From Scenedesmus sp. PABB004 (lineage: Eukaryota), in contig JABVCE010000010.1 of the NCBI GenBank assembly GCA_014905635.1, forward strand, positions 62,001 through 126,000: a stretch of DNA of 64,000 bases, read 5' to 3'. The translations under genes and the position numbers were made by a program. Shown here one piece after another: positions 9,483-64,000 of the stretch (positions are counted from its first letter, which is position 1; each line of letters starts with the position of its first letter). The notes beneath the pieces are model-generated. The model did not search any database. It saw nothing but the letters and a program-made list of their open reading frames with translations, and was not told where the DNA came from.

Positions 9483-9683
9483 GTGCACGACGGCCCGGCG
9501 CAGAGGGGGAGTGCGTGACGCGCGGGGGAGCTCTCCCTCTCTCCCCCGCCACGTGTGACGGCAGCGGCGGCGCGCGCGCCGCGAGAGGGCGGGCGGCGGC
9601 CGGATTTGCCCGAAACATGGCGGCGGCGCCCGCGGACGCAGCAGCAGCTGCGCACGCGGCTGCTGCGGCCGCCTCGGGGCTGG

Positions 9684-9688
9684 TGTAA
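9684..9688 (+). terminator. TGTAA polyadenylation signal of GS2
   Basis: Chlorophyte poly(A) motif ~200 nt after the GS2 stop; rare in this GC-rich context. Confidence 0.65.
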
Positions 9689-9778
9689 CAAGCTCGCTTG
9701 GCCTGCCGCGGGCGCGGCCAGGCTGACGAGGCGGGGCGCAGCCGGCGGCGCCGTCCGCGGCAGCGCACCGCGGCTCGT

Positions 9779-10962
9779 CGCCGGCCTTGGCCGCGCACGC
9801 GCGCTTGAAGGCGACCTGCATGGCTGCGAGCTCCGCGGCGGCGCTGCGACCCGGCTGCGGGTGCGGGGAGGGGCGAGGTGGGCGGGGGCGGGCGGCGGCG
9901 CGGCGCCGGCCGCGAGCGGCCGGCCGCAGCAGCAGCAAAGCCCTAGTGACATCAAACCACGTGGGCTCTGCTGCGGGGAGAGCGCGCTGGGCGCCGCGCT
10001 CTCCGCCCAGGCGACGGAGCGCTTGCTGGCGGGCGTGATGACGCGGCGGCGAGCGCTGGGGCGCGGTGGGGCGCCGCAACCGCCCTGGCGCGGCGGCGGT
10101 GGCGGCTGCGCACGCGGCGCACGCGGCGCACGCGGCCGCCGCTGGGCGGCGGTGGTGAGTGGGTGGCGTGGGGCGGCAGCTCGCCGGGGAACGCGCCGCG
10201 CCGCGGGCTGGGCCACTGCTGCTGCTGCTGCTGCCGTCGACGCCTGCGCGCGAGGCTGGCGAGGCTGTCGTGCACAGCGGGGCGGCTGCGGCGGTTCGGC
10301 GCCGCACGACGCCGCCGGAGCCTGGTCGGGCCTGTCCGCAGGGGAGGCCCCAGCTGGCGCCGAGCTGTCGCGCGACACACCGCAAGCCGCATCGGGGCAG
10401 CGTCCCGCGTGCTGCACGCCCGCCGCGCTCACCCGGGACCACCTCGCCCGCCAGTCTGGTAGCTCGGGCTGCGCGCCGGCTGCGTGCCGTGCAGCCTGCG
10501 GGAGCTGCCCCTCGGCGTGCGCGGCGCGTCGCAGGTCGCGCCGGCGCGCGCAGCCCGGGCAGCGGCGGGCAGGAGGAGGCGCTGCCGCCGGCGCCGCGAT
10601 GCCGCCGTCGCCGCTGCCGGCGTCGCCGGGCAAGGCGCTCAGCCCCGGCAGGGCCCACGGCGCCACGCTGCTGGCGGCTTGCCGGGCGGGCGACCTGGCC
10701 GCGGCGGAGGCGCACGCCGCGCAGCTGCGCGCCGCGGCGGAGCGCGCCGCCGGCGGCGCGGAGCGGCGGTCGCTGGAGCTGGCGCTGAACGCGGCGGAGC
10801 CGGCCGGCTGGTGCCCGCTGCTCTTTGCCGTGCGCAACGGCTGGGCGGCGCTCGCGGCGGCGCTGCTGGACGCGGGGGCGAGCACGACGCCGCGCCTGGC
10901 CGCGAGCGGCAACACCGCGCTGCACGTCGCGGCGGTGCACGGGCACGTCGACGTGGTGCGCC
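9779..10962 (+). repeat. Inverted repeat 1, right copy (1184 bp)
   Basis: Reverse complement of 6067-7250. Carries the start of the full-length ankyrin gene on + and a truncated GS2 start (ATG 9821) on -. Confidence 0.95.
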
Positions 10963-12698
10963 ACCTCCTGGCGGCGCAGCAGCAGGAGCGCGCGCAGCGC
11001 AGCAGCCCGCTGAGCAGCCCGTGCGGCAAGGCGGGGGCGGCAGCCCGCCGCTGTCGCCCAAGCCGGCGCCCGGCGTCGACGCGCGCAACACCAACGGCGA
11101 CACGCCCCTCATGTTTGCCTGCAGCGCCGGTCACATCGGCGTTGCGGCGCTGCTGCTCAACGTGAGCCGCAGCCGGCTGCGCGCACGCCACAGTCGCCCC
11201 GGTGCACGCGCGCCACCGCCACCGCCGCTCCGCAGGCGGGCGCCGCGCCCGGCGCGTCCAACGCCGTCGGCATCACGCCGCTGCTGGCGGCGGCGGGGCA
11301 CGGCCACGAGCCCTGCCTGCAGCTGCTCGCGCGCCACGCGGGGCCCGCCTGGCAGCAGCTGCTCGGCGCCAAGGACAGCCACGCGCGCACGCCGCTGCAC
11401 TTTGCTGCTGCGTCGGGTGCGCGCCCCAGCGCTGCGGTGGCAGGTGCGCGCTGGCCGGCACGCGGTGTCTGACGCGCGCGTGCCGCCGCCGCCGGCCGCA
11501 GGGCACGCAAGCGTGGTGGCACTGCTGCTGGGCCCTCCTGACGGCGCGAGTGCGCTCGACGTGTTTGCTGTGAGCGCCGCCGGCCGCACCGCGCTGCAGG
11601 AGGCGGAGCAGTCGGGGCACTGCGACTGCGCCCGGTGCGGCTGGCTGCGCGCACGCGGGCCGGGGCACCCCTCGGCTGCCCAGCACCACCTGGACTGCTG
11701 CGCTCACGCTCGCGCCGCTGTCCGCCGCCAGGCTCATAGAGGCCCGCATGGCAGCGGCTGCCGCGGCGGCAGAGGCGGCGGCCGCGCGCCTGCTGCGGGA
11801 CGAGGAGGCCGCCGCGGCGGCGGCGCCGGTGCCTGCGCGCAGCTCCGCCGCCGGCAGCGCCGCCAGGAAGCCTGGCCGCCGTCCGGCGGGGCTCGCCGTC
11901 CCCGATGCTGGCGCCGCGGCGGCGGCTGCAGCCCCGGCGCCGGCGGCACACGCGGCGGCGCAGGAGGATGCCGCGCCCGGCAGCGCGTCGCCGCCGCCGG
12001 GCAAGGCCGTGCCGCGCCCCCCGTCGCCCAGCAAGATCCCGGCGGCGCCGCTGTCGCCGGGCGCTGCGGCGCGCGGCGCCGGCGCGGCGGGCGACGCGGC
12101 GGGCGGCGACGGCTGGACGACCGTGGTCGCAGCCAAGCGCAAGGCCTCGGCCAAGTCCCCAGGGGCTGCAGCAGAGACGGCAGCGGCCAAGCTGCAGCCC
12201 GCCGCCGCCGCAGCAGGGGCGCGGCCAGCGGCTGCGGGTGCGGCGGCCGGCGCGGCTGCGGCGCCGCCGCAGCCGCCGGCGCCGGCCGGGCCGCAGCCGC
12301 TCAGCTACAGCCGCGCGCTGCAGCTGCAGGAGCAGCAGGAGCAGCGGGGGCAGCCGCCGCCGCCCGACCGCGCCGCGTCGCCCGCGCCGGCGGCGCAGGG
12401 CGCGGACGCGCCGGCGTGGTGGGACGACGCGCTCGCGGCCGTCTCGCCCGCCGCGGCGGCGCTGGACCTCCGCCCCGAGCACATGCTGGGCCTCGGACTG
12501 GGCGAGCTCAGCGCCGGCCAGCTGGACGCGCTCGAGCTGCTCCAGCGCACGGTCCTCGCGCAGCTGGCCGACGCGCGGCTCGCGCTCGCCGACGCGCAGC
12601 ACGCCGAGGCGCAGGCCGAGGCCGCGGCGCTGCGCAGCGAGATCGCGGGCCTCGCGGGCCTCGCGCCGGCGGGGCCGGGGGCGAGCGAGAGGGGCTGA
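10599..12698 (+). CDS. Ankyrin-repeat protein with low-complexity middle and C-terminal coiled coil (spliced)
   Basis: Ankyrin motifs GWCPLLFAVRNG, GNTALHVAAVHGHVDVV, GDTPLMFACSAGHIGVAALLL, GRTALQEAEQSGH. Apparent 1-nt frameshift in the G-run at ~11033-11037. Confidence 0.85.
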
Positions 12699-33893: not shown

Positions 33894-35175
33894 TCAGGCG
33901 CTGCGTTTCAGGTCGAACTCCACCAGCCCCGCCACCGCGGCGCGCAGCTGCACCCAGTTGCACGCCTGCTTCACCGCGACGCCCGGCAGCGCGGCGAGCG
34001 CGACGAGCGCGGCGCCCGGCAGGCCGCCGCGCCAGCGCGCCGCGAGCGCGCCGAGCGCGCCGCTGCGCGCCGCGGCGGCCGCGAGCGGCGCGGGCAGGGC
34101 CAGCCGCAGCAGGCCGGCGTCCTGGTATGCGGGGAGGTGCAGCAGGTAGAGGGCGAGGTAGGCCACCTCGCAGCACACGCAGCAAAAGCCCATGAACAGG
34201 CGGTTGCGGTAGTACGTGCGCACGAGCCAGCTGCGGCTGCCCACGTCCTGCGCGCGGCGGCGCGGCGCGCGGGCGCGGGCGCGGTGTGCGGCGCAGCGGG
34301 GGGCAGGGTCAGACCCGCGCCGCGCGGCGCACGCGGCGGGCCGCCGCGGCACGGCGCGCGGGCGGCGGTGGTGGCGCCGCGCCTTGTGTGTGCTCGCGCC
34401 GGCGAGGAGGCTTGCGTACATCTGGAACCAGTGGCTGAAGATGTCCAGCGCGATGAGAGCGATGAACAGAATGCTCCACCCCGGGTACGTCGCGCACAGC
34501 AGCGCGAGCAGGCCCGTCGTCGCGACCCTGCGCGGCGCGCGCACGCCGGGCCGGGCCGGGCCGGGCGCCCGTGGGGCTGCCGCCGGCGGCTGCTCGCGGC
34601 CGGCCGGCGGGAGAGCCCGGCCGCACCGCCACGCCGCCGCAGCGGCCGCCGCCGTGCCGCGGGCTGCTGGCCGCGGGCCGCGCCTGTCTGTGACCATGTC
34701 GAGCACCGCGCCCAGCGTGGACGTCTGGTTGAACGTGCGCGCCGCGCGGCCGTCCAGCTCGTCGCACACGAAGCTGCGCGGCGCGGCGCGGCGGCGCGAG
34801 GCGCGGCGTCAGTGCGCGGGGCGCGCTGGCGTGGCGGCCCGCGGGGCATCTTTTCCCGCCGGGGGCGGGACGGCAGGCATCGCCGCGCGCCGCGCGCCGC
34901 TGCGGCGCGCTCACGCCAGGAAGTACGCGCCCACGCAGGCCTCCGGGTATGTGGGCATGAATCCCAGCGCCAGCAGCGTCAGCACGATGCGCACGTAGCC
35001 TGCGCGCGCCGGCGGCGCGTCGGCGGCGCAACAGCAGCGCGCCGCCGGCGCGCCGGCCGCGGGGGCGGCCGTCGGCTGCCGGAATGCTCCCACCTATGAG
35101 GTTGGGGACGTAGACGTAAATGTTGGCGTGGCGGCCCAGGAAGCCCGCCCGCGCCGCCGCGCCGGCGCCGCCCAT
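33894..35175 (-). CDS. PIS1: Phosphatidylinositol synthase (CDP-diacylglycerol--inositol 3-phosphatidyltransferase)
   Basis: IYVYVPNLIGYVRI; CDP-alcohol motif DELDGRAARTFNQTSTLGAVLDMVTDR; LDIFSHWFQMYASL...HK. Confidence 0.93.
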
Positions 35176-35625: not shown

Positions 35626-38186
35626 ATGCGGCCCGCGGAGGCGCCGGGGTCGTACAAAAAGTTCTTCGGCTCGTCATTCCTGAGTGGTGCGCCGCCGCGC
35701 CGGGGCCGGCGCAGCACGGCGCCGCGGCAGCCGGCGGCGCCGCCCGCGCCCCGCCGCTGCCGCCCACCTCGCACCGCGCCGCGCGTCGCGCGCAGACTTC
35801 ACGCTCGTCATCTCCTGCGAGCAGTCGCCGCTGGTGGGGGATGCCGGCGCGGCCACGGCGGCGGCCAGCGCGCCGCCGAGCCCGCGCGTGAGCCAGTGCT
35901 CGGGCTGCGCCGGCGGCGAGGCGGCCGACGACGGCGGCGTGGGCGGTCACGACGCGGCGCGGGCGCCTGCGCTGGACAGCAGCGCCGCCGCCGCCGCGTG
36001 CGCGCCGTGCAGCGGCCAGCCCGACGGCGCCGCGCCGGAGCAGGCGCCGGAGCAGGCGCCGGAGCAGGCGCCGGAGCAGGCGCCGCCCGCGTCGCCGCTG
36101 GTCAAGCGCCACAGCGCCAACTGCCTCGCGGGGGGCGCCGCCCCGCTCGCCGCGGCCGCGGCGCCGTCGCCGCCGCCCGCGCGCGGCGGCATCCCCGCGC
36201 CGGTCGTGCTGCCGGTGCACGGCGTGGTGCTCGCGGGCGGCAGCCCCTATTTTGAGACGCTGCTGCGCGACTGGAGCGGCGCCGACGCGACGCTCACCAT
36301 GGTCGTGGGCGCCGACCAGGTGCGGCGGCGGCGCGTGGCGCGGGCCGGGGCGTGCCGCGGGCGCCGCCGCCGGGGCGCGCGCGCGGCGCCCGCTGCGCCG
36401 CCGCGCTCGCGCGCTCAGCTCAGCCCCTGTGCCGCGCCGCGCCGCGCCGCGCCGCGCAGGTGTGCGCGGCGCAGGTGCTGCTTGGGTTCATGTATGGCGG
36501 CGCGGTGCCCAGCAGCCTGCCGCAGCACGACCTGCTGCAGCTGCTGCTCCTTGCGGACCGCTTCGACGTCCGCGGCGCGCGCGGCGCCGCGAGCCGCGCG
36601 CTCGGCTGCCTCAGCCCGGCCGCGCTCGAGTGGGCCACGCTCACGGGCGTGTGGGCGCTGCCTGAGCATCTCTTTGACGCGGAGGAGCAGGCGCCGCTGC
36701 GGTGAGCGCCGCCCCGCGCGCGCGCAGGCGCGCCGCCGCCCGCGCGCCGGCCCACCCCGCCGCCCGCCGCACGCTGCGCAGCGCGGTGTCGCGTGACCGG
36801 CTGATGCAGCTCTTTGGCGATCTTGAGGACACGTGGGCCACCGCCGACGGCCGCGCGCTGTGGGCGCAGCTGCCGCTGCGCGCCGTCGTGTCGCTCGCGA
36901 GCAGCGATGCCCTGGCCGTTGCCAGCGAGAACACGGTCGTCGCCGCGCTCGCGTCGTGGGTCGCGCACGCCGGCGGCGCGTCTGGCGGGCTGCTCTCGCC
37001 GCACGACCTGCGCCTGCTCGCCGGCTGCGTGCGCCTGCCCACGCTGGGGCCGTGCTACATGAGCCACGTGGCCTTCCAGTTTGATTGGCTGCGCGCCGCA
37101 GTCGACCTGCCAGCCCTCGCGCGCGCCGCGGGCTACGCCGCCGCCGCGCCCGAGGTGCGCAAGGACCTGGCGCAGCATGCCGCCGCGAGCGCCGCCGCCG
37201 CGCTCGCGGCGCTCGCGGTCGGCGGCGCCGGCGCCGGCGGCGGCGGCAGCGGCGGCGGCGCGTGCTGCGCCTGCGCCGCCGCGCCGGTCGGCGAGGCGTC
37301 GCCCGGGGCGCCCGGCGCCGGCGCGGGCGGCGCCGCGGGCCCGTGGGGCGCGCCGCGCTGCGCGCGGTGCCAGCAGGGCCTGAGCGCGCCGCAGCAGGCG
37401 CAGCTGCTGGCGCTCGCGCAGGCGGTGCACCGCCCGCGCGCGGCGAGCTGCCGGCGCGCGTGTGTGTTCACGTGGGCCGTAGACCTCGCGGCGATCCGGC
37501 AGCTGCACGAGGAGGTCGCGGCCGCGGGGAGCCGGGACGGCCGCATCCTGCGCAGCCCCGCGCACTCCTTTGCGGGCTACGAGCTCGCGCTGCAGCTCGA
37601 GATCACGCAGACGCGCGGCGCAACGGGCTTTGACCCGTCCAAGCCCTGGGCGCTGGGCGTGTTTCTCACGTGCCAGGTGCGCGTCGAGTCGCCGAGCAGG
37701 CCCGGCGGCGAGGCGGCGGCGGGCGGCGCCGAGTCGCCGCTGCCCGGCGCGGGCGCGGGCGACAGCGCCGCGTGCGGCGGCTCGCGGCGCAGCAGCGCGG
37801 CGGGCGGCGGCGCCGGCGACGGCGCGCAGCAGCAGTGCGCCGGCAGCAACGGCGGCGCCGGCGCCGCGGCGCGGGCGGCGCTCGCGCTGCCGGCGGCGCC
37901 GGGGGCCCCCGGCGGTTCGGCGCTGAGCCTGCTCGACTTTGGCTTTGTCAGCACCGCGGCGACCATCAGCGTGCGCGAGGTCGGCGGCGGCAAGGACAAG
38001 CGCTGCGAGAAGAGCTGGGAGCACGCGGTCGTGCGCCACCGGGCCTCGTGGGGCTGGCCGAGCTTCCTGGACACGCAGGTCGTCGGCTGGGACGAGGCGG
38101 CGTTTGAGCGCTGGACCATACCCAGCCCCGATGGCGCTGGCGGCGGCCAGATGCAGCTGCAGGCGTCGGTGCGCGTGCTCGGCTGA
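35626..38186 (+). CDS. BTB/POZ (BACK-like) domain protein
   Basis: FLSDFTLVI...LPVHGVVLAGGSPYFETLL...LLGFMYGG...LLQLLLLADRFDV; BACK-like LASSDALAVASENTVVAALASWV; C-terminal WGWPSFL. Confidence 0.85.
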
Positions 38187-38310: not shown

Positions 38311-39209
38311 TCACCCGTCGGCGAGCACCTCTGCCAGCAGCTCCGCCTCGTGCGCGAGCTGCACCGCGGTGATCACCTCGCCCAGGCGGTCCCCCGCCAT
38401 GAAGCGCGGCACGTCCACGCTCAGGCTCAGGCCCACGCGGTGGTCCGTCACGCGGCCGTCTTGGTAGTTGTACGAGCGGATGCGCTCGTTGGTGTTGGCC
38501 AGCCCCACCGCAGCGCGCCGCGCGGCGCTCAGCCGCGCCGCCGCCTTTTGCGACTCCAGCTCGTGCAGCTTGGCCCTGGCGCGGCGGCGGCGGCGGCGTG
38601 CGGGGGGCGGCGCTGCGGTCCACCGCCGCCGCGCCGCGCGGCCGGGGCGCGCGCACGCGCGGCGCTCGCTGCGCGCCCGCGCCCCGACGCACCGGAGCAC
38701 GCGCAGCGCCTGCGCGCGGTTCTGCCCCTGGCTGCGCTCGTTCTGGCACGACACGGCGATGCCGGTCGGCAGGTGCACGATGCGCACGGCCGAGTCGGTG
38801 GTGTTGACGTGCTGCCCGCCCTTGCCGCTCGCGCGGCACGTCTCAATGCGCAGGTCGGCCTCAGCGATGTGCACCTCCACCTGCGGCCGCGGCGCGGGCG
38901 GCAGGGCAACGTCGCTCGCGCACGCGCGCGCTTGTGCTGAGGCCGCCCCGCCAGCACAGCGCGCGCCGCGGCACGCCGCCGCCGCCGCGCCTCTGAGGCC
39001 TCCGGCATGGCCACCACGACCGCGGTGCCCGTCTGCATCTTGCCGTGCTTCTCGTTCTCCGGCACCGCCGTCGCGCGGTGCACGCCGCTCTCCCAGCGCA
39101 GCTGCCCAAACGCGCCGGCGCCGCTCACGAGCGCGGTCGCAAACTTTATGCCACCGAGCTCCCCCGGCCGCGACTCGAGCACCTGCGCGCGCGCCGCGCG
39201 GGCGGGCCC

Positions 39210-39243
<34 letters not shown>

Positions 39244-40233
39244 GCGCTCGGCGGCCGTAGGCCCGCCCCCCAGGCAGGCGCCACGTCCCAACCCCGCACC
39301 TCGAAGCGCCAGCCCTGCGCGGCGGCGTAGCGGCGGTACAGGTCCAGCAGGTCGGCGGCAAACGCGGCGACCCAGTCGCCGCCCACGCCCGCGCGCAGCT
39401 CCAACACCACGTTGCCCTCGTGCGCCGCGTCGGCCGGCAGCAGCGCCAGCACCAGCGAGCCGCGCAGCTCCGCGACCTGCGCCGGCGCGTGGGTCAGTCG
39501 CGGCGGCCGCGCGGCGCCGCAAGTGTGGCCCCGGGCGCGCAGCGCCACAGCACGTGCCTGCGCGCGCAGCGTGGCGAGCTCCTCCTCCGCCAGCGCCGCG
39601 AGCTCCCTGTCCTGCTCGCTGCCGGCCATCTCGGCCAGGCCGTCGGCCTGCGGGGCGCAGCAGCCGAGCGTGGGTTCGGCCGGTGGGTCGGCGGCCGCGC
39701 GCAGCGCGCGGCACGCGCGGTGCGCGCCCACCTCGGCCCGCAGGCGCTGCATCTGCTGCCAGCCCTCGCTCAGCGGCGCCAGCGCGCCCGCCTCCTTCAT
39801 CAGGCGCTGGTAGGCCTCGCTGCCGGGGTTGGTCGCTGCGGCGGCGGTCGGCGCACGGCGATCAGAGCGCGGCGCGGGCGGCGCCCGCCGGCAGCGACCC
39901 GGTGCGCCGCGCGCGGCGGGCCGAGCGCCCACCTGCGATGGTGCTCTGGAGCGCCTCGTAGCGCGCGTGCGCCTCCGCCAGCTTGCGGTCGGCCACCGCG
40001 GCGGTGCCGTCGGCCAGCGCGCGGGCCGCCGCGGGCGCTGCGAAGCCCCGCCGCGCCTGCGCCGACGCCGCCCAGGCGGCGTAGTCGATGCCCGGCTGCT
40101 GCGGGCCCTCGCCGGCCGCCCAGCGCGCCGCCAGCGGCGCTGCGGCGCCGCCGCCCGCCCGCTGCTGCTGCCGGCTGGCCGCCGTGCCCGCGACGCGCAG
40201 CAGGCGGGCCGCGCCGCGCCCGAACGAGCTCAT
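38311..40233 (-). CDS. Class I peptide chain release factor, RF1 family, probably mitochondrial (mtRF1a-like), with divergent decoding motifs
   Basis: [64 protein letters not shown]; Arg/Ala-rich presequence [16 protein letters not shown]. Confidence 0.92.
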
Positions 40234-55236: not shown

Positions 55237-58200
55237 CTAGTGCGCGAGGCCTGGCACGCCGGGCAGCAGCGGGCCGACGCGCAGCGCGAAGAGCTCGCTG
55301 AGCGCGCGCTGCACGTCGGGCGGCGCGTACTCGCAGGTGATGAGCGCCGTCAGCACCGGGAAGAAGCGCTCCAGCTCGCCCTGGAACGTCGCGCCGTCCA
55401 GCGCGCTCAGCGCCTGCACCGGGCGCGGACGCACGCGGCGGCGGCGCGCGGGGCGGCGGCGCGCGGGGCGGGAGAGGGTGAGGCGCGCGCGCGGGCGCGA
55501 GCGCGGCGGCGGCGCGCGCGGCGGCGCGCGCGGCGGGCCGGCCGCGCCGCACCTTGAGCGTGGAGACCACGAGCGGCGCAAACGCGGCGTACTCGGCTGA
55601 GCTGGAGGCCATGCCGCCGCCGCCGCCGCCGCCGCCGCCGCTGGCCTGCCCGGGCCTGCTGCTGCCTGCTGCGCCGCCGCCGGCGCCCGCTGGCGCCGAG
55701 GCTGCCGCGCCGCCCGCGCCCGGCTGCTGGCCGCTGCCGAAGCGCTCCAGCACCGCGTACGACAGACCCACGAGCCGCTCCGACGCCTGCACCCGAGCGC
55801 GGCGGCGCGGCAGTGAGCGCGGCGGCGGACGAGAGAGCAGCGCGGCGCGCCGCGCAGCCCGGGGCGCGCGCCGCGCGCGCCCGCACCCGCATCGCCTGCT
55901 GCGCGTCGGCGCCGCCGCGCCAGCCGGCGCCGGCGCGGCCCACGCTGGCCACGTGCATCAGCACCGACAGGTACGCGTGGCTCGCCTCCGCCTCCTGCCG
56001 CAGCAGCGGCGGGTCGGCGAGCCAGCGGTCCTCCGGCACGCGGTCCTCCGCCTGCTGCGCCGCCAGGCGGCGGCGCAGCGGAAGGTCGGTGTTCACGCGC
56101 CGCGCGTGGCCGCCGACCAGCTGCAGGCTGTCCGCCAGCGCGACCATCGCCGCCGGCTGCGCGGCGGCCGCAGGCGGCCGCAGGCGGCGGGGCACGGAGG
56201 GGGGACCACGTCAGCGGGCGGCGGCCTGCAGCCTCGCCGCGCCGCGCCCGCGCGCCCCTGCGCGCCGCCCCCGCGCCCGCGCCGCGCCCGCGCCGCGCCC
56301 GCCCCTGCGCCCGCGCCGCCCCGGCGCCGCGCCGCGCCCGCCCCCGCCCCTGCGCCGCACCGGCATCTGGTGGTAGTGCTGCGCGTACACCTCGCTCCCC
56401 GCCTGCACCAGCAGCAGCTGCACGCCCGCCGCGACGCGGAAGCGCAGCAGCCGCCGCATGCCCACGCCCTCGCGCAGCGTGTACGGCGGCCGCGGCTGCC
56501 CCGGCGCCGCGCCGCCGCCGCCGCCGCTGCCCGGCAGCGCGTCGGTGCTGCCGCCGCCGGCGCGCAGCGGCGGCGTGACCAGCTCGGCCGCGTCAGGCAG
56601 CGTGTCGTGCATCGCCGACTGCAGCGTGCCCACCACCTGCGCATGGGCGGGAGGGCTGGCGCGCGTGGGCGGCCACGCGCGGGGCCACGCGCGGGCGCGC
56701 CGCGGCCTGCGCAGCGGCGCGTGCGCGGCGCGGCGCGCCTGCAGCCAGGTGTCGGGCGTGAGCTGTCGGGCGCAGCTGTGCACGAGGCGCACGTACGCGG
56801 CGACGCCGACGCTGGCGAGGCTCGCGTGCGCGCGCGTGATGAAGCTGGCCAGCAGGCCCAGCAGGCGGGGGAGCAGCGGGACCAGCGGCTCGTAGTACTG
56901 CCCCACCAGGTCGACCAGGTGCTGCGCGGGGGGAGGGCGAGAGGGGGGTGAGAGGGCGGCGACAGGGCGTGGGCGCGGGCGGCCACGGGTCAGTGCGTGG
57001 CGTGAGCGCAGGCCGCGTCCCGTGCGCCAGCCGTGACCCCCCCCCCCCCCCCCAAATGCCCCGAGCGCGCGCCGCGCGCGCCGCGCGCCTGCAGGCAGTG
57101 CGTGCAGGTGTCGTAGAGCCACGCGTCCTCCTGCGCGCGGCGGCGCTCGCTGGTGAAGGTCGTGGTGTCGGTCACCTCCGCGCGCACGTGGTCAAAGATG
57201 GGCAGCAGCACGCGCTCAAAGATGCGGACCCAGAACGACGCGGCAAACGCGCCGCCGTGCGTCGCGAGCACGTCAAACAGCACCTGCGCGCGCGCAGCGT
57301 TGTCGGCCGGGCACGGCGCGGTGGGGGCGTGCGGGCGTGCGGGCGCGCGGCACCCGGGGCGGGGCCGGGGGCAGGCGGCGGCGCCGCCAACCCCGAGCGA
57401 CGCCGCGCCGCGCGCGCTATGCGCCGCACCTCGAGCGCGGCGCGGCGGATCTCAGGGCGCGGGTCGAACGTGAGCTCGCTGAGCCCCGCGAGCAGCGGGA
57501 ACCAAAAGTACACGTGCTCGTCCCGGTCAACAAAGCGCAGCCCGCCCGGGGACGACGCGCCGCCGTCGTCGAGCAGCGCCGCCGCCGGCGCGCCGTCCGG
57601 CTGCGCGTCCAGCGCGACCTGCGCGGCGGCGGCGGCGCCGCGCGCGTGAGCGCGCACGCTGGCTTGATTGCGTGTGCGCGTGCGCCACGCGGCGCGGCCG
57701 CGTGCGGCGGCGCGGCGCGCACCACGCGCGTGGGCGCGAGCCGCCCCGGCTCGACGTCGGGCACCGCGTCCGGCAGCTCCCCGATCGCGCCCTCCGCGAG
57801 CTTGGCGGCGCAGAAGCGCAGGAAGGCGATGGCGCTGAGCGCGACGTCGAGGGAGTGGGGGTTGTTGGTGAAGGCGATGAGGCAGTTGACGCAGTCGGTG
57901 AATGTCGTCGTCTCCGTCTCTGCCGCGGTCCGGGGTTGAGGGGGGTTGAGGGGGTTGAGGGCGTGCGGCGGGGCGGGCGGCGGGCGTGTTGAGCGTGCGA
58001 GCGTGCTTGCTTTGTTGGGGAGGGGGGAGGGGAGCGGCGCGGCGCACGCGGCGCGCGCGCGGCGTGCCGCCACCCGCCGCCGCCTGCCCGCGTCGCGCGG
58101 CCGCGGCGCACCGGTGATGTGCGCAAAGTGCTGGCGCACGATGCGCTCGACGGTGTCAAACGCGAGCGCGACGATGCCCGGGTCGGCGTCGCCCGCGGCG

Positions 58201-61200
58201 GTGGTGAAGACCATGAAGAGGCTCTTCCAGCCGCTCTTGACGTTGGCCACGCGCGCGAGCACCATCTGGCTCACGCAGCGGATGATGAGCTCCCGGATCT
58301 CAACCGCCTGCATCCAGGCGGCGCGGGGCGGGAGAGTCAGGGGGAGGGCGGCGGCAGGGCTCGCTGACGCTGCGCCACTGCGCCGCCGCGGCCGCCGCTG
58401 CGGCCGCCGCTGCGGCGCACCTGCGACTGGCGCATGACGACGACGAAGGGGCGCAGGAAGTCGTTCTGGAAGGTGTAGTTGGCGAGCTCGTCGCGCTCCA
58501 GGAACTTCATCGCGAGCTGGCGCAGGCTGTCGACGGCGTACAGCGACACGGGCAGGCTGGGCGAGCAGCCGACCGTGATGAAGTGCTGCGCGAGCACCGC
58601 CCACATGCGGCTCCACACCAGCCTGGGGAGAGGGGGCGGGAGGGGGGGGGTGGGGCGAGGGCGGGCGTGTGAGGTCGGGCGCGCGGCGGCGGCAGGGCGC
58701 GGCGCCGGCGGGGCGTGGCATGGCGCGCCCCGTGCGCGCCCCGTGCGGCTGGTCGCGCCTGATGCGGCCCATATTGAAGTGGGAGATCTCGACGATCTTG
58801 GTCAGGCTGTACACGCGCGGCGCTGACGGCGCGGACAGCTCGTCCGCGCTGATCGCCGCGAGCGCGCGCACAAAGGCCACGATCGCGTCGCTGTCCAGGC
58901 CCGCGGACGACACGTACACCTGGCGGCGCGGGGCAGGGGCGCGCGCGGCGGCGCGAGCGGCGCGGCGTCCGCGCGGCGGCGGCGCGGGCGGCGTCCGCGC
59001 GGCGCCCGCGGCGGCGGCGGCGCGGGGAGGGGCGCGACGCGCGGCCCCCGGCGCGCCGCGGGCGCCCTGCCGCGCCTTGTTGATGGCGGCGGCGTCGACG
59101 GCGGCGATGATCTCCGGCGCGAGCGAGAGGCCCTCGAGCCCGCCCTCGTGGTGCCCGTGGTGGTGCCCGTGGTGGTGCCCGCCGCCCCCCGGCGCGCCCG
59201 CGCCGCGCTTGAGGCTGGCCTCGCTCATTGCCATCGTCTCCATCGACTGCGGCCCGCTCGGCGCGCCGCCGGCGCCCGGGCCGCCGCCGCGGCGCGGCGG
59301 CGCGCCGCCGCGGCGCTTTGCGTCGCCCGCCGGCAGCGCGCCGCCGGCGCCGGCGAAGAGCACCGCGTCGCTCGGCGTGCCGCTCGCCATCTGCTGCAGC
59401 AGCTCCCAGCGGCTGATGCAGCGCAGCACCTCCAGCCAGCTGCGGCGCGCGGCGCACGGCGGCGCGCCGGGTGGGTGAGCGGCAGCGGCGCGGCGCCACT
59501 ACCAACCCCTTCCCCGCGCCCCTTTCTCTCTCCCCCGTCCCGCGCCGCGCACCGCTCTCCGAGATGGTCCCCCACCGACAGCGCGACGTTGAGCAGCGCC
59601 CCGAACGCCAGCGCGTGCTTGACCCGCATCGTGGGCGGGCTGTGGAGGTGGCTGAAGTTGGCGAGGCAGTTGACGTACACGTCGCGCAGGTTGGCCACGC
59701 CGAGCGACGCGGAGAGGCACGCGGCGGCCTCAAAGCCGGTCAGCACGAGGCGCAGCAGGCGGGGGTCGCTGTACTCGTCAAACAGCAGGCTGAAGCAGCC
59801 CAGCAGCGGCGCCCAGATGACCTCCAGCATCGGGCGCACCGTGTCTGGCGGCGGCGCGTGCGGGCAGGGCAGGGCAGGGGCGGCGGCAGGCGAGGCGGGG
59901 GTCAGCGAGAGCAGGGCGCAGCGCGGGAGGTCAGAGAGGGCGGCGGCACGCGGCGCGCCACGCCCCCCCCTCGGGCCCCGCCGCCGCGCCGCCTGGCCCC
60001 AGCCGCATCACGCCCCTGCCACGCCGCCGCCGCCCCTGCTGAGCCCTGCCCGCCTCACCCGGGTCGGTCGCTGTGAAGTAGGTCGCGCCGTGCGCGCGCG
60101 CGTGCAGGTAGTCGAGCGTGCGCGCGATCGCGTCGTCGCTCGGCTCCGCGCTCGTCGCGGCCTTGGCCCCGCCGACGATGGACCAGAGCGCCGACATGAG
60201 CAGGCTGCCGCGCGCCGCCGCCTCGGCGGCCGCCTTGGCGCTCGGCGCGTCGACGAGCTCGTCCTTGATCTGGGGGGGGGTGTGGGTGGGCGGGCGGGCG
60301 GGTGGGCGGGCTGGTGCAGGGGGGTCGCTGGCTGGCGGCGCACCCGCTGGGCGCTCGCGCGCACGCATCGCATCCAAACGCCCCCTCATCCAGCCCTCTC
60401 CCCTCCCTCGCCGCGCCGCGCGCTGCGCCCGCGGCGCGCCTCCCACCTTGATCTCGTTGTGCACGATGCGGTCGTACAGCGCGCGCATGAAGGGCGGGGG
60501 CAGGTCTGCGCCGTCGTTGATGCCGCGGTTGTTTTTGAGAAAGTCCTCGGCGCTCATCTTCTTCTTCACCTGGCGGGCGGGCAGGCGGGGCGGGTGGGGG
60601 GGGGGGGGGGGGAGGGAGGCAGGGGAGCGAGTGAGAGAGTGAGATCGGGGTGAGTGAGGGAGTGAGCGAGGGGCACGGGGCGGCAGGGGCGAGGCGGCAG
60701 GCGCGCGCGCCGCGCCCGCGCCCGCGCCGCGCCGCGCCTGCGGGTTGTGCGCGTCGGTGTTGAGCATGATGACGCTGTAGGCGAGCACGTACGCGACGTC
60801 GGCGCTCTTGAAGCTCCCCGGGTTGCACAGCACGTAGCGCTCCGCAAACTTCTCCATCAGGCGGTCAATCTTCTGCGCCTCGCCCGGCAGCCGGAAGCCC
60901 TGCGCGCGGCCGCGCGCGCGCGCGGGGCCGGCCGGTCACGGCCGCGGCGCCGAGGCAGCAGCAGGCACCGCGCCGCCGGCCGCGCCGCCGGCGCAGGCCC
61001 TGGCCCGAGGGCCTGTGACCCCCCTCCCCCGTCCCCGCGCGCCTGCAGGAAGGTGCGTATGGCGGTGTCAAACTCCAGCCCCCCAAAGTCGATGCTGTCG
61101 ACATACGCATGCATCACGCGCAGCGCGCCCTCCTCGCGCTCGCCCAGGTAGTCCCCGATCAGCGTCTTGTCCAGCCCCTCCGCGCTGCGCAGGAAGGCCG

Positions 61201-64000
61201 CGACCTCCTCGGGGCTGCGCCCGACCATGCCCTCCGCCTGCGGCGGCGACGGGCGGGCTTGGCGGCGCGGCGGGGCCGCCGCGCGGCGCGGCGCGCGCAC
61301 AGCATGCGCAGCGCGCGCAGCGCACAGCGCAGCGCGCGCGCCTGCAGCGCGGCGATGCCCTTCTTGGGCTTGGTGTTGAAGAGGGCGATGCCCTCCGTCC
61401 ACTTCTCCTTGGCCGCGCGCTTGCGGATCAGCGCGTCGCCCGCGCCCGCGCCGCCGCCGCCGCCGCCGCCAGACGGGGCGCTCTCGCGTGGCTCGCCGCC
61501 GCCGGGCGAGCCGCCGCGCGGCGTGCTGGCCGCGGCGGCGCCGCCGCGCGGCGTGCCCGACTCGGGCCCGCCCGAGAGGCTCGTGGCGCTGGGGTGCGTG
61601 CTGCCCATGGCGCCGCCCGGCGCGGGCTCCTCGTCCCTGCGCACGGCGTGGTGCGCAGGCCATCGGCGCCGCGCCCGCGGCTGCCAGCCCCGAGGCGCGC
61701 GGCCGCCAGCAGCCCCCCCCCTCCCGCCGGCCCTCCGCCCCGGCGCGCGGCGCACCCGTCGGGTCCGTCGGCGCCCGCCGCGCCGGTCCGCGCGGCCTGG
61801 TACCAGCGCAGCAGCGCGTCGGCGGCGGCGGAGAGGCACGTGAGCGCCTCCTGGCGCAGCCAGGCCTCCTGCGCGACGCTGGCCGCGTCGGCGCCCGCGG
61901 GCAGCGCCGCCTGGGCCATCTTGACCAGGCCGCTGATGAGGCGCTCAAAGAGGTTGCTGCTGCCGATGTCGCAGTCGTAGTTCACAAACAGGTCCACCAG
62001 CAGCTGCCCCTCGCCGCACACCTCGCGCAGGCAGCGCAGCACGACCACCCTGGCGGCAGCGCGGCGCGCGGCGCAGTGAGCGGGGCGGCGTGCACGGCGT
62101 GGGCTAGACGGACGCAGCCCGCGCCCCTGCGCGCCCGCGCGCGCGCACTTGTAGCTGTACGCGTTGACCGCGAGGCTGCCGGCCGGGCCAGCGCCGCCGC
62201 CGGCGGGTCCGGGCCCCGCGCCGCCGCCCGCGCCGGGCGGCTCCAAGGGCTTGAGCATTATCATCGGGAAGAACACGCCCACCTCGGCCTTGAGCACGGA
62301 CCTGAAGCGCTGCAGCAGGGACAGGAAGATGCTCGCCGAGAGCTGCAGCGCGGCGGGGATGCTGCTCGCGCTGTTCTTCAGCAGGCTCAGGCACAGGTAC
62401 TGCCGGATCGCGCCCGCAAAGCGCTCGCTGCCGCGGAACGTCGGCCCGCTGTTCTCCAGCACGACCTTGAGCAGCTCCAGCGCGAGCAGCTGCGCGCACC
62501 GGCGGACGCGGCGGCGGCAGCAGTGGCAGAGGCGAGGCGGCGGGGTGGGCGCGGCGGCGGCGGCCGCGGCCGGGGGCGCCCCAGGCGCGCGTAGCGGCGC
62601 CGGGAGGCCGCGCGCGCACCTTGCCGCGCACGGCGGTCGGGTCGGCGACCGTGGCGGTGTCGCTCGTGCGTATGCTGAGCTTGCAGAGCGCGCGAAAGAC
62701 AAGGAACGCGTCCTTCACCAGCAGCGCCCGCAGCGCCTCGCCCGGCGGCAAAGCCGGCGCCGCCGGCCCAGCGCCCGCCGCGCCGGCGGGGCCCGCGGCC
62801 GCGGCGGGCTGCGGCGCCGCGGCCGCCGCGGGCGGCGTCGCGTCGCCGGCGCTGCCGCTGTCCGCGCCGGCGAGGTGGAAGGTCTCCCGGTCGTCGCCCT
62901 CCTCGTCCTCCTCCTCGTCCTCCGACGCGCCGCGGGCGCCGCCGCGCCCGGCTGACGCGGCCGCCGCGGCGGCCGCCGAGTGCGCTGCCGCCGCCGCGGC
63001 CGCGGCCGCGGCGTCCGCGGCGTCCATGCTCGCGCGCGGCGCGAGAACCGCGTCCGCCACGCTCTGCTTGAGCGCCTCCGCGCTCTCGCCCGGCGCGGCG
63101 CCGCCGTAGCCCGCCGCGGCGACGACGTTGTTGAGAAACCCCTGCACCGCCGCCGCGACGCTGCTCGCCTCGGGCGCGGCCTTCGCGCTCGGCCCCCCGC
63201 CCAGCAGGTCGGCGACGATGATCGGCCGCACCTGCGCGCACGCAGCACGCAGCACGCGGGCGGGCGCGCGGCGCGGCGGGCTCGTTGCTCGGCGGCGCGC
63301 GGGCGCAGGCAGCGCCGCCGCGCGGCCCGGGCGCGCGGGTGCAACACCGCCGCAGGCACAGCGCGGGCCGCTGGCACGTCGGCGCCGAGTCCTCCGCCGC
63401 ACCGCGACGCCGAGCCGGCCGGCCTCCATGCGCTGGAAGACGACGTTGAGCATCTGCGTGAGCGCGGCCTTGGCGGTGGTCTGGTTGACCTCGCTGCGCG
63501 ACATGAGGTGGATGTTGTACGCCGTGCGCACGCCCAGCAGCAGCGCCTGGCCGTGCAGGCTGAACGTGCCGCTCGTCGCCGCGGTGAGCAGGCCGCGCAG
63601 GACGAGCACCTCCACGCCCTCGTCGGGGATCTCGTCGCAGCGGCACACGAGCGACACCGCGAGGCCCTGCGGGCTGCCGCCCGCGGCGCCGCCGCCGCCC
63701 AGCGCGCCGGCGCCGCCCTCCTCGCCCCGCTCCGGCTGCAGGTGGTGCGCCGCGCCCTGCAGGTACCTGCGCGGCGCGGGGGCGCGCGGCGCTCGGGCAC
63801 GCGCGAGGCACGGCGCGGCGCGGCGCGGCGGCCGCCCCACGCGGCCGCGCCGGGTGCGCCACACTGCCGGGGCCTCGGGCGGGCCCACCTGAAGGCGATG
63901 AGCTTGTGGATGAGGTCCAGCGCCACCTCCACGATCGCCGCGCGCCGCGTGTCCACCGCCGCCGCGAGCACCTGTGCCGCGGGCGCCGCGCGTGAGCTGG
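55237..64000 (-). CDS. Brefeldin A-inhibited Sec7 ARF guanine-nucleotide exchange factor, BIG type (5' end outside the window)
   Basis: [35 protein letters not shown], Sec7 catalytic [84 protein letters not shown]. Confidence 0.96.

Follow-up and report, generated by a model that had tools for sequence, protein, structure and literature searches.

Which codons does a release factor read once the residues with which its family contacts the stop codon have been replaced? The question is raised by a gene on the minus strand of a 64,000-nucleotide stretch of DNA (contig JABVCE010000010.1 of Scenedesmus sp. PABB004, positions 62,001 to 126,000; hereafter the window, with positions counted from its first letter), in which a first-pass annotation had recognised an RF1-like protein with rewritten recognition residues and had proposed it as a mitochondrial release factor (RF) adapted to a deviant genetic code. 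Our analyses make it very probable that the gene is nuclear and encodes mtRF1a, the mitochondrial release factor, of a member of the Scenedesmaceae or a close relative (Sphaeropleales, 'Scenedesminia'), with a decoding region rewritten in the manner already published for this group. A peculiarity known from this group gains one further case, and what is added beyond it is small.

The window has a GC content of 74.8-83.7% in 4-kb steps, which is extreme for a eukaryotic nuclear genome, and it holds 197 stop-free frames of at least 200 amino acids (aa) over the six reading frames, so that open frames alone mean nothing here. The domains of the RF gene were matched in a Pfam scan of 62 of these 197 frames, chosen by high GC content at third codon positions (GC3) or by low Arg, Ala, Gly and Pro content. 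Its exon frames matched PCRF (PF03462; 8.6e-32, 111 bits against a cut-off of 24) followed by RF-1 (PF00472; 4.2e-33, 114 bits against a cut-off of 35), and the catalytic GGQ stands unaltered within SGKGGQHVN at aa 309-311, in agreement with the first description of an intact GGQ and scaffold. When the region from exon 4 to exon 5 was translated with intron 4 left in and searched against the PDB, 41 distinct sequences matched at E <= 0.001. A Streptococcus RF1 chain was the best of them (2.4e-24), E. coli RF1 was found at 1.4e-21, and mammalian mtRF1a (7nqh) scored 1e-21 as against 1.4e-12 for vertebrate mtRF1, while RF2 matched at 2.4e-09 or weaker. The rescue factors ICT1 and C12orf65 have lost the codon-recognition domain, and vertebrate mtRF1 carries characteristic insertions in the recognition loop and helix. 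The window RF shows neither such a loss nor such insertions: the full PCRF domain is present, and the alpha-5 tip and the loop align to RF1 without gaps. The matches lie well outside what chance would give, and the gene is predicted from them to encode a bacterial-type class I release factor of the RF1 branch.

Its closest relatives place it among the mitochondrial factors of green algae, as had been proposed. The window RF is identical to the Tetradesmus-type protein P0002 at 306 of 431 aligned residues (71.0%) and to the EukProt sequence P0003 at 242 of 362 (66.9%), and after splicing it is colinear with its orthologs from the presequence to the last C-terminal residue. A word-indexed search with the decoding region returned 38 matches, the top three being of sphaeroplealean type (one of them named Tetradesmus obliquus) and the rest bacterial RF1s of 28-38% identity. 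With P0002 as the query, six sphaeroplealean rows were obtained (three Tetradesmus, one EukProt sequence, Raphidocelis subcapitata and Monoraphidium minutum); below them the named bacterial RF1s were all alphaproteobacterial but two, both from metagenome-assembled genomes labelled only Pseudomonadota or Proteobacteria. Alphaproteobacterial nearest relatives are consistent with a mitochondrial ancestry of the window RF. In a tree of 33 rows built with IQ-TREE, among which the sequences of Table S5 of PMC6821328 (Graesiella, Coelastrella, Hariotina) do not figure, their relation to the window RF being judged by motifs, the window RF groups with Tetradesmus and P0003 with a support of 99 in the Shimodaira-Hasegawa-like approximate likelihood ratio test (SH-aLRT). 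This clade is sister to Raphidocelis and Monoraphidium, again with an SH-aLRT of 99; the next join, to the long-branched P0014, was flagged as a possible artefact. By eye, P0002 matches the mtRF1a of Tetradesmus obliquus and Scenedesmus dimorphus in that Table S5, and it is through this match that the window gene is identified, at the level of sequence, as the ortholog of that paper's mtRF1a, that is, as the sphaeroplealean mtRF1a. The N-terminal ~75 residues have no bacterial RF1 counterpart and are partly conserved with P0002; six Arg and no acidic residue occur among the first 41. We presume this extension to be a mitochondrial presequence.

The decoding site itself departs from canonical RF1 at several of the residues that touch the codon. 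Residues are numbered here as in Thermus RF1; E. coli positions were obtained by ungapped alignment to 2b3t_B, and the E. coli-to-Thermus offset of 4 was taken from the double numbering in PMC3974865. As stated there for RF1, the first base (U1) is read by G116, E119 and T186, the second (A2) is read by T186 and stacked on H193, and the third, which is stacked on G530, is recognised by Q181 and T194. The two peptides on which the first-pass annotation had based its claim of a rewritten recognition loop and alpha-5 tip are both present in the translation (Table 1). The window RF carries E119W, Q181T, R182A, T186N (giving PEN), I192M, H193Q and S195G, with Ser at 206, and keeps G116, P184 and T194. 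Of the traits of a canonical UAA/UAG reader it therefore retains G116 and T194 and lacks the PxT motif with Thr186 as well as E119, Q181 and H193; the sequence traits of the Scenedesmaceae type are there, namely Thr181, Asn186 with Ser206 (in MPEASE), and Ala182.

These changes are real and far from chance, because the canonical residues are near-invariant in the 149 non-sphaeroplealean RF1-family proteins gathered for comparison: E119, R182, T186 and S195 occur in all 149, Q181 in 148 and H193 in 147, so that the canonical residues named in the first-pass annotation (held by 147-149 of 149) are confirmed. W119, Q193 and G195, for their part, are found in 7 of 7 sphaeroplealean rows. A profile search of 1.84 billion representative proteins gave 27,792 matches at E <= 0.001, and residues were tallied in the best 150 of them. 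Within these 150, W119, a residue other than Arg at 182, and G195 are found in only two proteins (P0041 and P0161), both of sphaeroplealean type; Thr186 is held by 144 and Arg182 by 148, Q193 occurs in 13, and N186 in five (P0173, P0201, P0238, P0259 and P0265). In the five N186 proteins the Asn stands in other surroundings, VP.ND. and then a deletion of two residues, and E119, Q181 and R182 are canonical. Separately, the loop of P0253 (VPGH---LKKMHTS) resembles that of the Pycnococcus and Pseudoscourfieldia mtRF1a in Table S5 of PMC6821328, which has been linked in print to UUR stops.

An unbiased column scan extended the comparison to the whole protein, by listing the positions where a residue conserved in at least 90% of the 149 others is replaced in all seven sphaeroplealean rows. 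Eighteen positions were obtained. Ten lie within aa 193-288, namely T115V, E119W, an alpha-5 Leu, R182, H193Q, S195G with the residue that follows it, position 206, and two more; domain 4 accounts for seven, at aa 377-401, and the last is at aa 353. Eight further positions, Q181 and T186 among them, are changed only in the window RF, Tetradesmus and P0003. The domain-4 changes include the switch-loop tip (aa 377-380), where canonical GDRS has become ANTN in common with the Tetradesmus-type orthologs and ARFS or ARFN in Selenastraceae; G, D and R hold the first three of these positions in 95-100% of the 149 other RF1s, the fourth (S) being left out of the tally. Close to the tip, NFPQGR has become NYQDGR, likewise in common with the Tetradesmus-type orthologs. 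Because the ANTN tip aligns to E. coli RF1 301-304, it spans switch-loop residues 302-304, and peptide release is known to become slower when these are shortened (PMC6561943). The available text of PMC6821328 yielded, in term searches, no discussion of Gly116, Glu119, Ile192, His193, Thr194, position 195 or the switch loop, although its Figure 4 may mark some of them. E119W, H193Q, S195G and the switch-loop rewrite are, as judged from the column scan, equally lineage-specific additions to the published residues. The switch-loop rewrite may also have nothing to do with codon choice and have come from co-evolution with the mitoribosome.

The background against which these residues can be read was set by Zihala and Elias (2019; PMC6821328), who described altered mtRF1a in this order, as the first-pass annotation had stated. 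According to that paper, mtRF1a is the sole mitochondrial release factor of chlorophytes, and every sphaeroplealean data set that yielded any mitochondrial RF yielded exactly one, always mtRF1a. Gln181 is mutated there in lineages in which UAG is a sense codon (Scenedesmaceae, Hydrodictyaceae/Neochloris) and kept in Selenastraceae, of which Monoraphidium neglectum, at least, retains UAG as a stop; Thr186 is replaced by Asn together with Ser206 in all Scenedesmaceae but one, which was linked to the reappearance of UGA as a stop; and the loss of Arg182, unique to Scenedesminia, was proposed to permit C at the second codon position (UCA, UCG). Ala182 occurs also in Monoraphidium minutum and, by eye, in Bracteacoccus and Ankistrodesmus of Table S5. 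A paper of 2025 (PMC12574857) restates the Scenedesminia hypothesis and, in the part available, reports no experiment on it; nor is a release assay on such a retuned mtRF1a reported in the accessible portion of the literature searched.

In a mechanism built on these elements, the protein would be imported into the mitochondrion through its N-terminal extension and would serve there as the only release factor, entering the A site of the mitoribosome and triggering peptidyl-tRNA hydrolysis through GGQ. Its rewritten contacts to codon bases 1-3 would change the set of codons recognised: since E119, T186, H193 and Q181 are all replaced, the factor could presumably not read codons as RF1 does. UAG, which encodes Leu in Scenedesmaceae, would no longer be accepted, and UAA, UCA (and UCG) and possibly UGA would be. 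The loss of Q181 would fit the rejection of UAG; W119, the absence of R182, Q193 and G195, which all Scenedesminia have in common, are candidates for the acceptance of C at position 2, given that T186 and Q181 are unchanged in Selenastraceae; and N186 together with S206 has been put forward in print as what would let G be accepted there too. We infer from the protein's residues, in line with the first-pass annotation, a factor retuned to UCA and a deviant mitochondrial code in this organism.

Several points weigh against so direct a reading of residues as codons. The assignments of residues to codons are correlations only. T186N cannot be what enables the reading of UCA, because Selenastraceae, which belong to the UCA-stop group, keep both Q181 and T186. 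Two cases in PMC12574857 weaken the published links: in Resultomonadaceae Gln181 is substituted and yet UAG is kept as a stop, and UGA probably encodes Trp in a pedinophyte that carries Ser206. A possible but doubtful variant of the retuning is that C at position 2 depends mainly on E119W, H193Q, S195G and the switch-loop tip, and not on R182, Q181 or T186N/S206, the window RF then being a lone factor of bacterial type that reads U-A/C/G-A and rejects UAG; were this correct, its specificity would match neither the RF1 class nor the RF2 class.

Among explanations that deny the retuning, the one that survives best, improbable as we consider it, is that the substitutions are real and conserved but compensate for a diverged mitoribosomal decoding centre, the unusual stops being handled by something else, such as a dually targeted plastid RF2 or a rescue factor. 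The spread of the changes beyond the base contacts, to the switch-loop tip and to domain-4 residues that dock on rRNA and S12, speaks for such compensation, and PMC12574857 both questions the hypotheses on Gln181 and Ser206 and raises dual targeting of pRF2 for UGA. It is opposed by the nature of the residues replaced, since E119, Q181, T186 and H193 make hydrogen bonds to the codon bases or stack against them, by the replacement of Q181 along the lineages in which UAG is sense while Selenastraceae keep it, and by the single mitochondrial RF found in Sphaeropleales (PMC6821328).

It is highly improbable that the gene is a degenerate or rescue-type paralog, in the manner of ICT1, C12orf65 or vertebrate mtRF1, with a canonical PxT mtRF1a elsewhere in the genome. 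The loss of the canonical decoding motifs would be expected of such a paralog, but the protein is not truncated, has both domains and retains the codon-recognition domain entire. The new residues are in their turn conserved (W119, Q193 and G195 in every sphaeroplealean row), the score of the protein is better against mtRF1a than against vertebrate mtRF1, and the published survey counts exactly one mitochondrial RF in each species, in every case this ortholog (PMC6821328). Least credible of all is a plastid pRF1 or an unexpressed pseudogene, given the orthology to proteins classed as mtRF1a and the alphaproteobacterial nearest bacterial relatives on the one hand, and on the other a frame intact over seven exons, a GC3 of 96% and an identity to orthologs of 71%, all of which speak against decay.

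The gene extends beyond the range first annotated. That range, 38990..39410, contains the decoding region and takes in exon 5, intron 4 and the 3' portion of exon 4; the whole gene has seven exons and runs from 40233 to 38311 on the minus strand. The preferred model comprises 1317 nt and encodes 438 aa with no internal stop (Table 1). Introns measure 81-117 nt and have AG at all 3' ends; four donors read GTG(G/C)G, and those of introns 3 and 5 are GC (CAG/GCACGT and GAG/GCGCGG, the slash marking the predicted junction), so that two of the six introns are predicted to be GC-AG. The GC donors were preferred because the protein must stay colinear with its orthologs. A GT donor is available for each of the two introns: that of intron 3 would extend exon 3 by 9 nt downstream to 39549 and add three residues (ARA), and that of intron 5 would extend exon 5 by 33 nt to 38958 and add 11 residues. 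Both additions are absent from 6 of 6 orthologs, in which the exon 5 junction region reads PEASE/VEV with no insertion, and with the GT donors the alignment score against P0002 falls from 1470 to 1436; the GT models, of up to 452 aa, therefore stand only as alternatives to the preferred one. Intron 4, which has a run of (CCG)n, is free of in-frame stops, and its read-through would yield a poly-Arg stretch.

Table 1. Exons and decoding features of the predicted mtRF1a gene, and other domain-bearing frames, in window coordinates.
Feature	Position	Strand	Description
Exon 1	39933..40233	-	ATG at 40233, the first ATG of the open frame; GT donor after 39933; encodes the ~75-aa N-terminal extension and the beginning of RF domain 1; N-terminus alignable with P0002 (ARLLR and QPGIDYA.WA common to both)
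Exon 2	39732..39835	-	Domain 1; AG acceptor and GT donor; colinear with orthologs
Exon 3	39558..39647	-	Domain 1; GC donor at 39557 preferred (predicted junction)
Exon 4	39300..39476	-	Contains the alpha-5 tip; G116 kept, E119W
Alpha-5 tip	39395..39360	-	aa 193-204
Exon 5	38991..39182	-	Recognition loop from 39092; PEN at 39062..39054; MPEASE (Ser206) at 39008..38991; GC donor at 38990 preferred (predicted junction)
Recognition loop	39092..39015	-	aa 255-280
Exon 6	38693..38880	-	Catalytic RF-1 domain (Pfam RF-1, 4.2e-33)
GGQ	38820..38812	-	aa 309-311
Exon 7	38311..38575	-	Domain 3/4; ANTN switch-loop tip at 38499..38488; stop TGA at 38313..38311
BACK-domain open frame	36678-38183	+	1.4e-4; convergent with the RF gene, ends ~125 nt from the RF stop
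CDP-alcohol phosphatidyltransferase	33897-34808	-	Short match, 3.9e-6
Ankyrin repeats	9519-11162	+	1.8e-9
Sec7-family exon frames	57420-62714	-	Sec7 5.8e-37, Sec7-like HUS 9.8e-33, HDS 8e-15

Elsewhere in the window, the Sec7, HUS and HDS matches indicate a putative BIG/GBF-type ARF guanine-nucleotide exchange factor; the remaining matches are listed in Table 1.

Reassignments of sense codons to stops are rare, and experiments have yet to explain how a bacterial-type RF might tolerate a pyrimidine as the second base of the codon. The window gene, which comes from a genome of extreme GC content, extends the published series of retuned mtRF1a by one natural variant. Position 182 is variable (Ala, Met, Lys, Thr), as against the invariant W119, Q193 and G195, and this contrast narrows the choice of residues worth mutating for a release assay or modelling in a termination complex. 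The value of the gene is as comparative material, and it opens no new question.

The nearest of the known systems are the Scenedesmaceae mtRF1a of Table S5 in PMC6821328 (Graesiella sp. 549, Coelastrella sp. M60 and UTEX B 3026, Hariotina reticulata, Tetradesmus obliquus and Scenedesmus dimorphus). In a comparison made partly by eye, they share with the window RF Trp119 (GGDW or GGEW), Thr181, the absence of Arg182, Asn186, MQTG at 192-195, Ser206, KGGQ and the ANTN switch-loop tip. Graesiella sp. 549 has GGDW and HRATKVPENDKHGRMQTG, then AMPEASEVEV, with T181, PEN, MQTG and S206 as in the window, and differs from it at four residues, counted by eye, in a loop segment of 34. The region of residue 186 reads PDN in Coelastrella M60, PTN in Hariotina, PSN in Tetradesmus and PVT in Coelastrella UTEX B 3026. 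At position 182, where the window RF has Ala, Lys stands in Graesiella, and Coelastrella, Hariotina and Tetradesmus all have Met. The expectation that novelty would lie in this specific set of residues is thus not upheld: with all but Ala182 of these states in Graesiella, and Ala182 in Monoraphidium minutum, the set is not new, because it recombines published states and includes no new one.

At a greater distance, the mtRF1a of other Scenedesminia, namely Bracteacoccus and the Selenastraceae (Raphidocelis, Monoraphidium, Ankistrodesmus), share the E119W, the loss of Arg182, the H193Q and the S195G of the window RF, and differ from it in keeping Gln181 and Thr186 (PFT) and in a switch-loop tip that reads ARFS or ARFN, not ANTN. 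The canonical RF1 and mtRF1a proteins (E. coli, Thermus thermophilus, 7nqh and Atractomorpha echinata) have in common with it the four domains, GGQ, G116, P184 and T194, and differ in E119, Q181, R182, PxT, IHTS and the GDRS tip, reading UAA and UAG; Atractomorpha echinata, outside Scenedesminia, is wholly canonical in Table S5 of PMC6821328. Other organellar factors have been proposed to read stops derived from sense codons, namely the mtRF1a of Marsupiomonadales and Pseudoscourfieldia (UUR), the labyrinthulean mtRF2a (UUA), the peDinoflagellate pRF2 (UUA/UCA) and vertebrate mtRF1 (AGA/AGG), but these are other paralogs, or carry other loop changes, and serve other codons. Vertebrates, in particular, have an extra specialised paralog (PMC12574857) and not, as would be the case in the lineage studied here, a retuned sole factor.

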